Assembly (NCBI GenBank): GCA_013239625.1
Contig: MU053873.1
Coordinates: 2,122,524 to 2,186,523 of the forward strand
Source of the DNA: Lama guanicoe
Taxonomy: Eukaryota
Length of the DNA stretch: 64,000 bases
Direction of reading: 5' to 3'
Below, piece by piece: positions 5,860 through 64,000 of this stretch (position 1 is the first letter of the stretch; each line of letters begins with the position of its first letter). Made by a program: the position numbers and the translations under genes. The notes below the pieces were generated by a model. The model was given only the letters and a program-made list of their open reading frames with translations, was not told where the DNA came from and ran no database searches.

Positions 5860-6630
5860 AGACCCCCGAGAAAGGACAGCCGACTTTAATCCCATAATGG
5901 AAGTCAGGGAGGATTCTGCCTTCGAAGGCTCCCAGCGGACTTTTGTCGTGGAGGCAGCACGCACTGTACACGGATAAAGTGGCTTTTAGAACTATTAGAA
6001 AGTGGGTGTGCTGGGAATGGGGAGGAGGGGGTGCCCAGGATGGGAAAATTAAAATTCCGCTCCTGCCGAAGGTTTCTGGGCTCCAGCTCGCCGCGCAAGC
6101 ATCGATCTGTTCCAGCACTTGACTTTCAACCATGACAAAACTGTGGGCAAATTAATTGTTCACCAGGATATTAAGCATCAGACTCCATTAATCCTTTCTG
6201 AGCGAGATGCTTGCTGAATACTAATCGGGAGGGTTCCGGGCTGCCAGGGGTGTTTTTTCCTGCCCACCGAGGCCCCACCAGGTCCCGCCTTTCTCTGTCT
6301 CCCCTGGGTGTGGGTGCCAAGGGGTGAGCCCCCTCTCTTTCCCCCCGAACTACCTTTATTTCCCTTTGTGGCGGAGGTCAGAGCGGGGACAGGTGGGCCC
6401 AACCTGAACCGCCCCTCCCTCGCCTGGGCGTCTGCTTCCAGGGAAGCGGGGGGACCGGTAGCAAGATTGTTTTATGCAAATTCCAATATCTGTATGCAGG
6501 CACAGCGGTGAGGATGAACACAAGAAATAATTACCAAATTATGCACGTTGAGTTGGTTTTCCTGAATCCCGAGCCCTTTATAAAGAGAAAGCGAAAACAC
6601 AGACACATGAATGTATAAAATGGACAAACA
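5860..6630. promoter_or_regulatory. Candidate enhancer/CNE: homeodomain- and octamer-rich unique segment
   Basis: No repeat signature; TAATCC, AATTAATT and ATTAATCC motifs and ATGCAAAT at 6474-6481; conservation untested. Confidence 0.35.
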
Positions 6631-9899: not shown

Positions 9900-10330
9900 A
9901 GACACTGTTTCCAAAAAGGATTAAATAAATACGTCCAGTGGGAGGGGGAGCCCCGGCTTTCACTGCCCGCTGGCGGGAAATTAAATAATGTTCATTTCTG
10001 CCGCTGTGAGCCGGAACACGGCTGGCCGAGCCGCAGGGCCCGGCCAGGAGGCAGCCGCGATTGGCAGCTCGTGGCAAGCCCTAAATCAGAGGAGCCGATG
10101 AAATTTCTAATAGCGGGAGCACGACTGGCATCGGCGTATAAATAAAGCTCCCCTCTTGAAAGGCAGCTTATTCCAGCCTTGCCGCCAAGGATATTAAGCC
10201 CGGAGGACTGGCGGCTGCGGCCAGGCTGGACCCAGGCCAGAAGCCAGCTGGGCTGGGGAGGCATGAGTCCTTCCCCGGCGCAGGTTCCGCTGCCCCCGCA
10301 GCATCGCCTGGGCTGGAGCCCCTGGGCGTG
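9900..10330. promoter_or_regulatory. Candidate enhancer: CpG-retaining unique segment with homeodomain/forkhead-like motifs
   Basis: ggattaaataaata, aaattaaataatg, ctaaatca, tataaataaa interspersed with many CpGs; conservation untested. Confidence 0.35.
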
Positions 10331-24135: not shown

Positions 24136-24515
24136 GTACCTTTGTCAGCTGGAGCTGCTGTAACCAAAATACCATAGACTGGTGGCTTATAAACGGACAT
24201 TTATTTCTCACCGTTCTGGAGCTGGGAAGTCCAAGATCAGGATGCCAGCATGGTCACGTTTTGGGGAGAGCCTTCTTCCAGGCTGCATCTACCAGCTTTT
24301 TGCTGTGTCCTCAAGTGGCAGAGACCGAGAGAGGATGCCACAAGTTCTCTAGTGACTCTTATAAAGTCAGTAATCCCATCAGGAGGACTCCACCCTCATG
24401 ACTTCATCTCATCCTAATTACCTTCCAAAGGCCCCACCTCCTAAGGCCATCCCATGGCGGGTAGGGTTTCAACATATGAATTTTCAGGGGGGTCACAAAC
24501 ATTCAGTCCATGGCA
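24136..24515 (-). mobile_element. MLT1A-like solo LTR, full length
   Basis: gctgctgtaaccaaaataccatagactggtggcttataaac...cctaattaccttccaaaggccccacctcc...gtttcaacatatgaattttcaggggggtcacaaacattcagtccatggca. Confidence 0.88.
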
Positions 24516-25169: not shown

Positions 25170-25335
25170 CTGATAGATATGCTAATTTCATTATTCATGT
25201 ACATAATTACAATCTAGAAGTTGGCAGCTTTCTAGGTAATGACAGGAGGGAAGGGGAAATTTACCTAACTTTTGTAATATATGTGTGGTATTATTTAACT
25301 CTTAAATTAAGATCAGGGACCTAATTCATTGCATG
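25170..25335. promoter_or_regulatory. Candidate enhancer/CNE
   Basis: atatgctaatttcattattcatgtacataattac: ATGCTAAT octamer variant plus TAATTA in an AT-rich island. Confidence 0.3.
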
Positions 25336-32739: not shown

Positions 32740-32870
32740 GCTCATTTACATGATCCCAGCTTAATTCTCCCAGGGTATGCAAATGTATGCAAACCACGAT
32801 CCAGGAGAGGCAAAAATAGCAGGGCGCATTAGCATCCCCCACAGGAATATTGTTTTATGCAAACGAAGTG
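32740..32870. promoter_or_regulatory. Cluster of four octamer/POU-like sites
   Basis: ATGCAAAT 32777-32784, ATGCAAAC 32787-32794, ATTAGCAT 32828-32835, ATGCAAAC 32857-32864. Confidence 0.45.
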
Positions 32871-35980: not shown

Positions 35981-36613
35981 TAGTAGTTTTTCTAGGACTG
36001 CCGTAACAATGCTCCACAGCCTGGGTGGCTTTAACAACAGAACCTCATGTTCTCACAGTTCACTCAGCTGGAAGTCCAAGGCCAAGGTGTCGGCAGGGTG
36101 GCTAGCTCTTCGGAGGCCTCTCTCCTTGACTTGTAGGTGGTCACCTCTGCCTCTGTCTCTGTCTTCACAGGGTCCTTCCTCTGAGAATGTGTCCTAATCT
36201 CCTTTTCTTCTTTTTAAAAAATTTTTTTTTAAATTCTTATTTTTATTTTTAATTGAAACTTAAATTCTTTTCCTTTAAAGGTTTTTTTGGAGCGGGAGGT
36301 AATTAAGTTTATTTATTTATTTTTAATGGAGGTACTGGAGTTTGAACCCAGGAGCTTGAGCATGCTAAGCACGTGCTCTCCCACTGAGCTGTACCCTCCC
36401 TGCCCAATCTCCTCCTCTTAACAAGGACACCAGCGTCTTGGATTAGGGCTCACTCCAATAACCTTATTTTAACTTGTTTGCCTCTGTAAAGACACTATCT
36501 CCAAATTCAGTCATATTCTGAGCTACCAGGGGTTAGGATTTCCACATGATATGGATATGAATTTTACAGGGACACACTATGAATTTGCTGGGAGCACAGT
36601 TCAGCCCAGAACA
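35981..36613 (-). mobile_element. MLT1B/C-like solo LTR interrupted by a SINE
   Basis: ctaggactgccgtaacaatgctccacagcctgggtggctttaacaacagaa...[SINE]...aaggacaccagcgtcttggattagggctcac...gtcatattctgagctaccaggggttagga. Confidence 0.85.
36210..36405 (-). mobile_element. tRNA-derived camelid SINE (vic-1-like)
   Basis: Minus strand reads GGGAGGGTACAGCTCAGTGGGAGAGCACGTGCTTAGCATGCTCAAGCTCCTGGGTTCAAACTCCAGTACCTCC (A and B boxes) then (TAAA)n and an A-rich tail; flanked by aatctccttttctt (36196-36209) / aatctcctcctctt (36406-36419), 12/14 identical. Confidence 0.85.
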
Positions 36614-45379: not shown

Positions 45380-46200
45380 GAGACTAAAATTCCATCATTG
45401 CCAAACCCGCGAGAGGCAGAGAGCCCGAGCACCTGGCTCCAAACTCAATTAACCAGATTTTTTAAAAATTGTAATCGCAGCCCTCGTCTTTCTCCCCTCC
45501 TTCCTCTTCTCTTAAAAATTTTTATTATATATGCTTTTTGACAGCCAAAGACTTCAGGATACTTGATACGCTGTATATTAAGCAGAGTGGCAGCTGCGAT
45601 ATTGCCAAGCGAAACAAAATACAAAATTTACAGCAGTAAATTCTTCTCTCTTCAGGGTGGTTAATTATCTTAATTACTTTTATTATCTTTTCTCTTTTAA
45701 GATCCTAAATTGCTTATTGTTGCCTCTCCTGCCAAAGGCGACCACATATCTTTTGCTGGTGCATGCTGAGTAAAGAGTCGTATGTACATCTTTCTGGTGA
45801 AATTTAAAGGCACTTTGATTTATACCTGACTTCTCCTTGTGCTTTTAATTGCACTAACTAGTGAAAACAAAGTTATGTGAAATATCGGCTGACGGCGGGA
45901 AACACACACACACACACACACGTGCACGCACGAACTCCAAATCAGACAAATGCTTCCCTTTCCTTTTTTTATATCTGCTCCTCTCTCTCCTGCATCCTTT
46001 GTGCGATGTGGGGAAATCCATTTCTCTCTAGCAAATCTGAACTCGGGAGAGAAAAGAATTACAGGCCTTGCAAACTGTCACACTTTCCCCGGGAACGGGG
46101 AAAGGTGATTTGGTTTGAAATAAATCCATTCACGGTTAACATTTTAAAGCAAAGGGGAAAAAAGGAGGCGGGGGGTGGGGTGGAAATCACCAGGCACCTA
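45380..46200. promoter_or_regulatory. Long candidate enhancer/CNE
   Basis: About 800 bp without a repeat signature, AT-rich; caattaa, tgacag, ttaattatcttaatta, ctttgatttata, ttaattgc and aacaaag motifs. Confidence 0.4.
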
Positions 46201-46869: not shown

Positions 46870-47232
46870 CAGTTCTCTTGGCTCAGGCTGCTCTAACGAA
46901 AGTGCCGTAGACTGGGTGGTTTATAAACAGCAGAAATTTCTCGTGGTCTTAGAGGCTGGCAGTCCTAGATGGAGATGCCAGCGGGGCAGAATTCTGCTGA
47001 GAGTCTTCCTCCTGATTTGCAGACGGCTGACTTCACACGCGGCACAGAGAGGAAGCCACTGTCTCCTGACTCTTAGAGGGACGCGAATCCCATCCGTGAG
47101 ATCCCCACCCTTGTGACCTTATCTAATCCTAATTGCCTCCCCAAGGCCCCCCCTGCTAATATACCATCACACACGAGGGGTGGTGTCCCAGCACAGGAAT
47201 TCCGGGGGAACCCGAGCACTCAGTCCATAACA
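46870..47232 (-). mobile_element. MLT1A-like solo LTR (diverged)
   Basis: ctcaggctgctctaacgaaagtgccgtagactgggtggtttataaacagcagaaatttc...ctaatcctaattgcctccccaaggcccc...cactcagtccataaca. Confidence 0.8.
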
Positions 47233-47280
47233 ACAGGCATCCCCTTCGAGCACTCAGTCCATAACAACAGGCATCCCCTT
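47213..47280 (+). repeat. Perfect 34-bp tandem duplication
   Basis: cgagcactcagtccataacaacaggcatcccctt at 47213-47246 and 47247-47280. Confidence 0.95.
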
Positions 47281-48289
47281 CCTGCCTCTGTCCAGAGAGG
47301 AAGGTCAAGTTTACGACCATTTAGAGGAAGATTGTCTGAGTTTCACTGAGGCCTGTGAGACTGGGGACCCGTTACCCCAAGCAACCCCCCAGGGCTGCCC
47401 AGCAATGGACCCCGGCCCGGCCTAGGGGCGGGGCACCTGCCAGTCCCTTTCTGACCACCTCCTGCTCTCTCCCCCGCCCCATGCAGGTGTTCCTCTTGGC
47501 ATCTGTAGTTCTTGGTGAGGTGTCCCTTCAAAGAACTTACCCAGCCTTAGCACAGGAAGTTCCACATCCCACGTGACTTTTTGGACCCAGGCAAACCGGG
47601 ACGCTGGGTCACCTGTATCTTGAGCCTCTTTCTCTCAAGGATTCTCTGGTCCTTTTTCTGTTCCTGTCTCTCAGTCTGGGTCCATCCTTCTGTCTGTCTG
47701 TCTCCTACCGTCTCCTCTTTCTTTTATCCATCCCTGCTCCCCTGGCGTCCCTCCTCCTTCCTCTCCTCCAGACTCTCCACCTTTTGCTCTTTGGCAAGAA
47801 AAGCCCTGCATTTGCGTCTCCAGAGGGCCTAGGAAACTGGGTCCAGTGACAAATGTCTGGGAGGGATGAGGGAAGGCGGGGGAGGGGCAGTTGGCTGGGA
47901 GGAGGGAGGAGGCTCACCTGTCGGGGAAGGGCCCACATCCTCCGGTCCCACAGGGAGACTTTCTAAATGCTACTGGGTTCTGCACACGGGCCTGTTTTCC
48001 CACACACTTCCATGCCATGCCAGAGGGAGAGGTGCGTGCGTGTGCGGGTGTGAATGTGCGTGCACGTGCATGCAGGCCCTGGTGGCAGGGCCACTGGAGA
48101 CGGCAGGGCAGCACGTGGGGACAGGGAGCTGCACCCCCTCTGCCAGATGCTGGTCGCCTCTTGGTGACTGTCTCCAGGGCTTTTGGGGCATCTACATCAG
48201 GAGACACTAGGGGGCAAGAAAGCAGGATGCGGGGTGGAGGGGCCACGGCTGCCACTGTCCTTGAGAATTCTCAGGGGGGAACAATTTAC

Positions 48290-51149: not shown

Positions 51150-51810
51150 GTTACAATTATGTTTCCACGTTGTTACTCATTTTTGTAAACATTTCAATGG
51201 CTGCATAATATTCTCGCCTGTAGATAAGTCAGGATTCATTTTTCACTTTCCCTTGGGTAGACGTTTAGGCCTTTGCCTGTTTAGGGGCTCATACGTAACG
51301 TTCCAGGGTGCGTCCTCTTCTCTGTGTTGTTTTCCTTCGATCCCCAAGGTGTGCCCTCAGGAGCTGGCACCCAGGGCCAGGGCAGGCCCTTTTGTGAAGA
51401 GCTTGGAAGGCAGCACAACATTACTTCAGAGACATCCTGCCTCGTGTTACATCCCCACCGGGGACATGTTACATCCCCACTGGGGACATGTTACATCCCC
51501 CCCGGGAACATGTTACTTTCCCACCGAGAACATGCTACTCTCCCACTGGGAACATGTTACATCCTCACCCGGAACATGTTACTTTCCCACCGGGAACATG
51601 TTACTCTCCCACCGGGTACACGAGGGGCCCTTCTCACCACACCCTGATTTTCACAGACAAGTCACCTTAACAGCAACAGCAACATTTTCTAAGAAAATTA
51701 AATGCTTGAAATGTTCATTGCTTTCATTCTCTTTTTCTCTGATTCCCATCAAGTCTGAGCTGTCCCCATATGTTTGTCAACCAAGTACACTTCCACTTTG
51801 TGACAAGTCT
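51150..51810 (-). mobile_element. Very old L1 (L1ME-like) fragment hosting a minisatellite
   Basis: aatggctgcataatattc...gtagacgtttaggc and tactctcccacc...gaggggcccttctcaccacaccctg resemble antisense L1 3' sequence. Confidence 0.5.
51445..51620 (+). repeat. 22-bp minisatellite, 8 units, consensus TGTTAC(A/T)(T/C)(C/T)CCCACCGGGAACA
   Basis: Units start at 51445, 51467, 51489, 51511, 51533, 51555, 51577 and 51599 with no indels. Confidence 0.95.
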
Positions 51811-53049: not shown

Positions 53050-53500
53050 AAAAGACGGCATGTCTTTAAGGCATCGAATGTGGGAAAAAAAAAAAAGGAG
53101 GCACTTCATCCAGCGCCCCTCCTGGGCTTGTCTGTATTCCTGCAGCAGCCCGGCCCGCATAAACATTCGGCACGCAGCACTTGCAGACACTTTTTAATAG
53201 AATCGCTTAAAACAATTAATTACCAGAGTTTTCATTCAAGCTGCGGTGCAAAAGATACGCCGGCAATAAAAGGCATTTATCCGCGGGTTTCTCGAGGCCT
53301 GTTTGTTATTAAGATGTAAATTAAATCATCACAGATGTTCCATTTTTTAATCTAGGCCTGGGAAGATCGGGACCGAGTGTGGCCTAAACGGGTTGATTTC
53401 ATTACCCGCACATTCATTAGAAACTCACCGTCTTATTCGATATCATTTTTCTTGGGTGCCGACCCCCCTTCCTTAAACAAATTATCAGGATAATTTGTTC
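53050..53500. promoter_or_regulatory. Candidate enhancer/CNE, AT-rich but CpG-retaining
   Basis: aacaattaattac, caataaaa and gtaaattaaatca motifs plus many CpGs; no repeat signature. Confidence 0.45.
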
Positions 53501-60055: not shown

Positions 60056-60168
60056 TAGGGTGACCAACTGTCTGGTTCTCCTGGGACTGTCCTGAGTTTA
60101 GCACTGAAAGTCCTATGTCCCAGGAAACCCTTGAGCCTCTGGCACACAGGAATGACTGGACACCTTAC
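60056..60168. mobile_element. MER81-like hAT-Blackjack MITE
   Basis: tagggtgaccaactgtc...gggactgtcctgagtttagcactgaaagtcctatgtcccaggaaaccc...ggacacctta (inverted ends). Confidence 0.8.
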
Positions 60169-61770: not shown

Positions 61771-62630
61771 AGGTGAGAAGCATGCCGGGGCCCCCGATGT
61801 GGTTTGGAATGCCAGCATGGTCTGGAGGGAGAGGCCGGGGGCCTGAGGATGCCGCCAGGAGAGGAGAGAGGATGGGATAGGGTTAGCAAGAGAGACTGGG
61901 ACCTCTGGGCAGCGTGGGTGTTTCGGTTCTGGGGGCTTCTGGGAGGATGACGGTTTGAGGTTTTTCTCATGGAGGAAATGACACCTGGAGACCAGGCAGA
62001 AGCAGGACCAGGGGCTGTGGAGTCCGGCAGACCTTGGAACCAGGTCTGGCAGGAGAAATACGTCTTTGCTACTCTGAGCCTCAGTTTTTCCATCTGCAAA
62101 ATTGGAAATTCTAATCCCTGTTCTTGATTTCTCCCTCTTTTGTGAGATGCAAGTCCAAGAGGGCATGGAAACGTGCTGTAAGCTACCACATGCTGGAGGG
62201 GGCATAAGGAGGTACCAGTGGCCGTGATGCACAACATATTACACTTATGTATAAATAGACTGAGGACAGCAATAGTCCCCTTGAATGTGCAAGACTATTA
62301 CATAGACTGAGTAGCAACTAAGTACCTGTACTTCCGTTAATAATTTCTTCAGATGGTCCCAAACAAAAGGAAGAGAGTATGCTCATCTGGGTGATACTTC
62401 TGAGCCTGCTCTAAGAGACAGTTCCTCAGATTCACAGCACCCCAAAATGTGATTCAGACTGTGATAACTCCGCAGGATTAAGGGAGGGGGGAGGATAAAG
62501 AGAGGGTCCTAAAATCTTTTCATTATGGACTCAAATTTTATTTGTATTTATAATGAGTTATCAACCAGAAGAAAGCTGTCAATTTGTCGATGACAATGGG
62601 TCCTTAAAGGGAACAGATAAGAACAGCTAA

Positions 62631-63206
62631 TAATTAGTACATAAATCAATTGCAAGTCAGTGTTTGGATTTGTGATTAGCATACAAGTAATTTGTTGTTT
62701 GACATTTTTGAGATTAAGCGTCGGTGTAATTAGCACATAAATCATTTGCACATGAGTGCTCCTGAAGTGTCTGGTGTGTAATTAGATGTAAATCATTTGT
62801 ATTTGGGGGTTTCTAAGGTATTTGGTGTGTCATTAGCACATAAATCATTTGTACATTAGTGTTTTTAAAGTGCTGTGTAATTAGCACATGGATTATCTGC
62901 AAATATGCATTTCAAATTATTTGTTTGTTATTAGCATGCAAATCATTGGTGCATAGAATCTTCTAAATTATTTAGTGGTCAGTGAGTACGTATTTAATTT
63001 GTAAATAAGACATTCTAAAGTGTCTTTTGTAATTAGCACATACACCAGTTGTGTATATGTGTATGTTTGAGTTGCCTGATTTGTGATTAGTGCACAGATC
63101 ATTTTCTGAATGAGCTCTCTTAAGTGACTTATAGTTTGCATAGAAATCATTTATCAATGGGCGTTTCTAAGGCACTTGATTTATAATTGACATATACGCA
63201 ATTTGT
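62631..63206 (+). repeat. Degenerate ~51-bp tandem array, 12 units, conserved core TAATTAGCACATAAATCATTTG
   Basis: Core starts at 62631, 62673, 62727, 62779, 62830, 62878, 62928, 62979 (weak), 63030, 63084, 63132 and 63184; spacings 42-54 bp. Confidence 0.88.
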
Positions 63207-63835
63207 AGATGGGTCTTTAATAACTGCTTGAAAAAAGTTCTTCCTCTCTTAAGAGATACTCTTTTATCCTGTGTACATTTGCTTAGCAAGCATAATTGCA
63301 CTTGTAGAAAGAAAGATTTATCAGTTGCTGAGGTTTTCTCTCTTCTCACTCCAAGCTCAGAATGCACATCTTGCATCTCAAAACATTTCACAACACTGTG
63401 CTGTTGGCTTGTATGAGACCAAAAGCCTGGTGTCTCTCTAGAGATTCAGGTCAAATCTCAAAGTCTCTTTCAGTGAGGTGAAGGTGTCTCTTGTGTTCTA
63501 GGAGATCAGAAAGCACCGTCTGGACCTAACTGATAAGAGGGATTTGGCAAAAAATAATCAAATGGGAATCACTAATTTGTGAATAAATACAAACTTTATT
63601 CAAATAAGAAGCCCAGTGACTCCCCAAATAACTATGAAGGAAACAGGAAAGGGAATTAAATTTTTGGTCAGTTAGTGGATGCCAGGAACCGACCTAATCG
63701 TAGGGGAGAAATCTCACTTAGTTATAATAACCATCCCGACGGACACTCATTGCACCTCCAGCATGAATCAAAGCAACAGAAAGAAACATCCCAGAGTTTA
63801 AAAACTCTTGAGAATGTGTTTAAAAAGCACCCTCA

Positions 63836-63880
63836 CATATACTTATATACAACTGGTATATGTGCTAATTACAAAAGATA
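63836..63880 (-). repeat. Inverted copy of array unit 9 (63021-63065)
   Basis: Reverse complement tatcttttgtaattagcacatataccagttgtatataagtatatg matches tgtcttttgtaattagcacatacaccagttgtgtatatgtgtatg at 40/45 positions, ungapped. Confidence 0.92.
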
Positions 63881-64000
63881 TGATAGATAAAATAATGAAA
63901 AGATGACCATGACTAGATAAATTCTGGCTTTGAATCCCAGAGGCAACTTACAAATCCTTTAAGAATCTAGACAGGAAAAATGAAACATTAAAAGAATCAT

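Follow-up and report, generated by a model that had tools for sequence, protein, structure and literature searches.

A degenerate 12-unit tandem array with repeated homeodomain-type sites, probably an ancient and partly constrained enhancer

The window that we analysed, a continuous stretch of 64 kb, carries on its plus strand a tandem array of 12 degenerate units (62631-63234) with a period of about 52 bases, each unit consisting of a 22-base core and a 30-base spacer. The units begin at 62631, 62673, 62727, 62779, 62830, 62878, 62928, 62979, 63030, 63084, 63132 and 63184, and the last one ends at about 63234. A preliminary description of this DNA had listed 12 units with spacings of 42, 54, 52, 51, 48, 50, 51, 51, 54, 48 and 52 bases, in exact agreement with these starts; the array that it described as having a period of about 51 bases is there, with the period being 52 on a periodic alignment. 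Mean pairwise identity among the units is 0.59, with no clear drop with distance between units. A unit profile recovers the 12 units, which match by construction, and one inverted copy, all at E<=7e-5; the same search finds no further copy in the 64-kb window (next best E=0.053). Tandem Repeats Finder (TRF), which had been proposed as a check, detects units 3-5 (62727-62877, plus strand; period 51, score 164) and not the whole array. Their cores are the best kept: over 19-20 non-CpG columns, units 3 and 4 have no mismatch and unit 5 has one. By eye, a possible remnant of an extra unit lies upstream of unit 1 (62579-62612, plus strand), a segment that the profile search does not report as a unit.

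The window is non-coding mammalian DNA, and its right end is occupied by an AT-rich island (62500-64000) that contains the array; GC content per 100 bases is 0.26-0.45 in the island compared to 0.44-0.60 in the other 2-kb bins. No coding exon was evident on reading the whole 64 kb, and the surroundings of the array are a gene-poor stretch or gene desert. The array itself is not protein-coding, because a period of 52 shifts the frame at every unit, stops are present in all six frames across the array, and none of the 11 frames tested near it reaches the Pfam cut-off. A 17-residue coding repeat was considered and is ruled out by the period and the stops. A search of Rfam returned three weak rows near the array (best E 1.6), none of them near threshold. 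Elsewhere in the window, the one gathering-level Rfam match is to a tRNA (36327-36398) within a tRNA-derived SINE on the minus strand (about 36230-36400), which looks like the camelid Vic-1 type and marks the genome as camelid. The segment 59500-59760 resembles an old L1/HAL1 5' fragment, and two frames tested there have no Pfam match. Other repeats include a young 22-base minisatellite (51445-51620; eight copies, 82% matches, higher period 66 bases) and an exact 34-base tandem duplication (47213-47281).

The inverted copy, which makes a 13th unit and is absent from the preliminary description, lies 770 bases downstream on the minus strand (63835-63887). It matches 45 of 53 bases of a plus-strand arm that begins late in unit 8 and takes in most of unit 9 (63014-63066), and it resembles unit 9 (40/44) more closely than any other unit (at most 32/44). 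A short quasi-palindrome around CAGTT is found both in unit 9 (63036-63066) and in the inverted copy (63835-63865). Over 44 bases these two differ four times, and three of the differences, one in the left arm and two in the right arms, complement each other, a pattern expected from hairpin-templated change or from a stem that has been kept. Outside the left end of the array, a 13-base word (62514-62526, plus strand) is the exact inverse of a word located just outside the inverted copy (63892-63904, minus strand). A match of this kind was equalled in 2 of 5000 shuffles of the flanks, which had been chosen after the match was seen. Local template switching could give both the inverted copy and the 13-base words.

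The cores are better preserved than the remainder of the units, as had been claimed, and this holds on both alignments. With MAFFT the scores are 0.82 for the core and 0.62 for the spacer, a gap reached in 7 of 3001 permutations, whereas the periodic alignment with period 52 gives 218/266 (0.82) for the core and 241/326 (0.74) for the spacer, and an alternative periodic alignment gives 219/266 and 240/329 (0.73). The gap that is left after careful alignment is half of that in the naive alignment. Nevertheless, divergence is not uniform between core and spacer: neutral star simulations, which began with 12 identical units and included CpG hypermutation and indels, reach the gap in 0-4 of 150 runs under each of six settings. 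Indel events are distributed as 3 in cores and 11 in spacers. A CpG-decay pattern (CG/TG/CA) occurs at columns 10-11 and 31-32, with log-likelihood gains of 2.5 and 2.9; CpG loss together with alignment error as the whole cause of the gap is refuted by the periodic alignment and the simulations.

Compared among the 12 units, the core nevertheless looks like plain decay, because there is no excess of invariant core columns (three observed, 2.5 expected) and core pairwise identity (0.706) is the same as in an old dispersed-repeat pair of the window (0.711). The yardstick for age was provided by two such pairs, with 246/346 and 48/73 identical positions; they are located at 24154-24511 with 46887-47228 and at 60057-60168 with 47530-47620, and we assume them to be MLT1-like and MER81-like. 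If judged from the units alone, a neutral fossil that inherited its difference between core and spacer would be a fair verdict.

The grammar of binding sites that the preliminary description read into the core, with PBX-HOX and POU words held in helical phase, mostly fails. The full 22-base core is intact in one of the 12 units. The exact word TAATTA is present in five of 12 units only, although as a block it is among the best kept (63/72), together with the closing TTTG of the core (43/48); in the form TAATT[AG] it opens six of the 12 units and the inverted copy. The POU word ATTAGCAT is found in two of 12 units and is doubtful as a kept site, since it is this rare and falls at a position with the CpG-decay pattern. 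The PBX-HOX word ATAAATCA occurs in three of 12 units and RTAAATCA in four, and the PBX-HOX block (65/84, 0.77) is no better kept than most of the spacer (77/100 and 86/111). Helical phasing finds no support: the observed concentration of R=0.42 at 10.5 bp is reached by 28%, and that of R=0.53 at 10.2 bp by 18%, of 20000 simulations with neutral indels. On the minus strand, ACUAAU, which had been described as repeated, is limited to two of the 12 units.

A different pairing, TAATT[AG] followed after 10 bases by CANNTG, is present in units 1, 3 and 9 and in the inverted copy, with a spacing of 9 in unit 4. Among the units, the fixed E-box positions (41/48) are no better kept than the free ones (22/24), and co-occurrence of an intact homeodomain site (six units) with the E-box (five units) is without support, four units having both (p=0.12). 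Another TAATT[AG]-10-CANNTG is located at 45451 on the minus strand. Several further stretches of the window are AT-rich and TAAT-rich (6100-6230, 9920-10200, 25170-25330, 45440-45900 and 53180-53500), and by eye they resemble conserved non-coding elements set in a GC-rich desert. A cluster of octamer-type words is found at 32745-32870, in which ATGCAAAT occurs twice, 10 bases apart, at 32775-32793 (TRF).

Related DNA in other lineages was found for the left end of the array. The probe was a stop-free frame of 77 codons on the minus strand (62551-62781), which spans the left flank, units 1 and 2 and, from unit 3, the core and some of the spacer, together with part of the start of unit 4; it matches no Pfam family and we claim no gene. 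The relatives are accidental gene calls on related DNA, and the comparison is one of codons in which synonymous positions are invisible. Among 1.84 billion representatives there are four matches, two of them close; P0003 and P0004 were dropped as chance matches (31% and 28% identity, repetitive). In the 90% collection, 12 records in four clusters are related to the probe frame, and a profile search returned the same four clusters among 399 candidates. Differences from the window amount to 3 of 60 codons for P0001, 4 of 39 for P0002, 4-7 of 60-61 for the nine records of the P0005 cluster, and 14 of 58 plus a 3-codon gap for P0006. All clusters except P0006 show 88-92% codon identity. Of the 39 codons shared by the window, P0001, P0002 and the P0005 cluster, 2-8 differ in mutual comparisons. 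Beyond codon 72, the frame of the window is one base off from that of all relatives, and here P0001 also shows three further differences from the others; P0001 is therefore somewhat less close than the count implies. The P0005 cluster contains six nested haplotypes up to five codons apart, with many records from metagenome assemblies, a make-up that, as a guess, would be consistent with host DNA from a clade of ruminants.

If the three close clusters are non-camelids, their identities are far higher than expected for neutral DNA. Among simulated neutral descendants of the probe whose frame stays open and which remain findable, the level of 88% codon identity is attained by 40 of 2073 runs at d=0.13, by 1 of 1240 at d=0.17 and by 0 of 508 at d=0.23, and the codon identity expected neutrally at d=0.13-0.23 is about 61-75%. 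At d=0.04, a camel-like distance, 8289 of 9319 runs (89%) reach this level, so one of the close clusters may simply be Camelus. Camelids offer only two deep lineages. The other two close clusters would then be non-camelids that change about four times more slowly than neutral DNA, unless they are paralogues. For scale, the distance from alpaca to its nearest neighbour in a 44-way tree is 0.205 according to Table 1 of PMC3031029. P0006 fits neutral divergence at d=0.13-0.17.

In the three close clusters, the changes are unevenly distributed along the stretch with signs of slow change (62551-62751), which consists of units 1 and 2 and the core of unit 3, preceded by 80 bases of the left flank. 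Counted by hand under a star phylogeny, changes in the window and these clusters number one at 40 visible core sites, nine at 35 spacer sites and six at 43 flank sites (core versus spacer, p=0.006). With P0006 added, the changes number 7 in the core, 11 in the spacer and 13 in the flank (core versus spacer, p=0.16). With 13 changes at 43 visible sites, the flank is about as slow to change as the array, so constraint extends beyond the repeat. Of the core changes in P0006, the two in unit 1 hit the two free positions of CANNTG and the remaining four lie in unit 2, where the sites had already been broken. The fixed homeodomain and E-box positions of units 1 and 3 have no changes where 2.8 are expected (p=0.06).

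Other searches were less productive. A frame over units 8-11 gave no candidate relative, a result that says little because the search needs a called open frame. An exact look-up of nine window frames returned 0/9, and the best score in an atlas search (0.79) is at chance level. Scans with the core pattern gave one locus in viral contigs and none in prokaryote genomes; three loci in metagenome contigs, each a lone core with no second unit, were taken as chance. Alignment searches confirmed 0 of 90 candidates in viral contigs and 0 of 63 in prokaryote contigs. In sequencing runs, the share of the words is 0.94-0.98 in 14 of 24 rows (six organism codes, five studies), one row being a possible source. 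The share is 0.05-0.17 in six rows, some of which may be RNA and none of which enters the evidence.

Weighing these observations together, we consider it somewhat probable that the locus is an ancient tandem array, now frozen and at least partly constrained, that probably acts as an enhancer with homeodomain sites. An old regulatory element is likelier than junk because the end of the array that can be compared appears to have changed unusually little between mammal lineages. Selection on a homotypic binding array, as proposed in the preliminary description, is the leading reading, because the difference in preservation is real and the comparison across species gives indirect evidence of constraint for units 1-3; these parts of the proposal find some support, but its PBX-HOX and POU words and its phasing do not. 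The 52-base tandem expansion would be ancient and would have ceased homogenising long ago, and at least units 1-3 and the left flank would now form a constrained non-coding element. As a putative distal enhancer, the array may offer in its repeated TAATTA(G) a homotypic platform for homeodomain factors, which would depend on the number of sites more than on their strict phasing along the helix. The core may also have a partner site at its 3' end, given the CANNTG 10 bases downstream in three units and the inverted copy. We infer that the relatives include non-camelid orthologues, and purifying selection follows from this. If the stretch is constrained, then the units would be much older than their 59% identity suggests at a neutral clock.

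An alternative explanation is that the array is a fossil minisatellite in neutral decay, the gap between core and spacer either predating the freezing or reflecting a local bias in mutation or indels, and the close relatives being camelids or duplicates. The decay of the cores at the pace of old dispersed repeats, the lack of surplus invariant columns, the CpG-decay patterns, the absence of a phase signal and the neutral-like distance of P0006 all fit this explanation. However, as many as three clusters at 88-92% are more than one sister genus would supply, and the six haplotypes of the P0005 cluster suit a clade of several species. The split of changes between core and spacer in the three close clusters (1 versus 9) also speaks against it. 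Uniform decay along the unit does not agree with the rarity with which the neutral runs reach the observed gap. We regard a neutral fossil as unlikely.

The layout of the locus also suggests a mobile element: terminal inverted words enclose 12 units in subterminal position at the left end and, next to the word at the right end, a single inverted one, within an AT-rich island with a sharp change in composition. Under this explanation, the segment 62514-63904 is what remains of a single non-autonomous DNA transposon whose cores were once kept for transposase binding, and any present constraint is local and not tied to the repeat. The rarity of the 13-base inverse match in shuffled flanks supports this explanation, which would account for the core-spacer gap without host selection. 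However, the inverted copy matches the inner unit 9 and not the outer unit 1, none of the seven frames from 62551-63887 matches Pfam at cut-off, the relatives amount to four clusters and not to a large family, and template switching could have produced both inverse matches. No target-site duplication was seen by eye in the flanks, where it would be eroded at such an age. We find a relic of this kind quite unlikely; a transposon origin is, however, also compatible with the array being a constrained enhancer. A combination of the two would hold that an undescribed, very old DNA transposon with ends at 62514 and 63904 had its subterminal array taken over as a 12-fold enhancer, with homeodomain site and E-box one helical turn (10 bases) apart in a composite different from the Coordinator motif, and with intact units constrained while broken ones drift. 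The changes in P0006, on free CANNTG positions and in the broken unit 2, are as this combination predicts, and we give it a slim chance of being correct.

Finally, the array might be the repeat domain of an RNA, in a lncRNA or a long intron, whose AUUAG/CUAAU words bind an RNA-binding protein and whose unit 9 and inverted copy form a 53-base long-range duplex, as the retention of ATTAG in nine of 12 units, the predicted energy of the arm duplex (-66 kcal/mol on the plus strand or -56 on the minus strand) and the pairing of the arms in the minimum-energy fold of 63000-63900 (49 and 45 pairs) would allow; however, any inverted duplicate would fold likewise, the scarcity of ACUAAU, a branch-point-like word that as read from the sequence lacks a following pyrimidine tract, and the lack of an Rfam match near threshold speak against it, and we consider this explanation improbable.

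If the constraint on a homeodomain-site enhancer holds at the nucleotide level, then the array is a natural experiment with 12 replicates, in which paralogous units of one origin can be compared, and intact and broken units across mammals would show which bases of the homeodomain composite matter. The array would also illustrate how a tandem expansion becomes an enhancer, and that function is possible in arrays which tandem-repeat finders mostly miss. Should the constraint not hold, the array is one more fossil minisatellite.

Searches of the literature by core strings and topics, which covered few subscription papers and main texts without supplements, found no description of this array, and we compared it with four kinds of known system. 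Like the old decayed minisatellites of mammalian introns and deserts, it has a period of 40-55 bases, low identity between units, CpG loss and near-invisibility to TRF; unlike them, its uneven decay goes beyond neutral simulation and its change between lineages appears slow. With non-autonomous DNA transposons that have subterminal repeats the array shares inverse end words and oppositely oriented units at its two ends, but neither a target-site duplication nor remains of a transposase nor a family of copies was seen. DNA transposon families with subterminal repeats exist, and mobile elements have been exapted as regulatory DNA. Background on such exaptation is given in part of PMC3428314.

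The Coordinator motif combines TWIST1 with ALX/MSX/PRRX homeodomain sites at a 6-base spacing, as set out in portions of 10.1101/2023.05.29.541540 and PMC12102336. The array shares with it TAATT[A/G] and CANNTG at a fixed spacing (units 1, 3 and 9 and the inverted copy). However, the spacing is 10 bases, or 9 in unit 4, as compared to 6 in Coordinator, on which grounds we rejected an identity of the two, and the 64-kb window has no match to the Coordinator type with 6-base spacing.

Homotypic clusters of homeodomain sites occur in vertebrate gene deserts. Like these clusters and the conserved non-coding elements found in the same setting, the array is non-coding and AT-rich with repeated TAATTA, has gene-poor surroundings and appears to change slowly between lineages; unlike them, it consists of 12 head-to-tail 52-base units plus an inverted 13th copy. 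Background on conserved non-coding elements can be found in sections of PMC3526296 and PMC3428314. To judge from its motifs and its apparent rate of change, the array has the features of a putative conserved non-coding element that carries a homotypic cluster of sites, the conservation being that seen in codon-level relatives. The array probably belongs to a known class of element, and what is unusual in it is the anatomy of the repeat.
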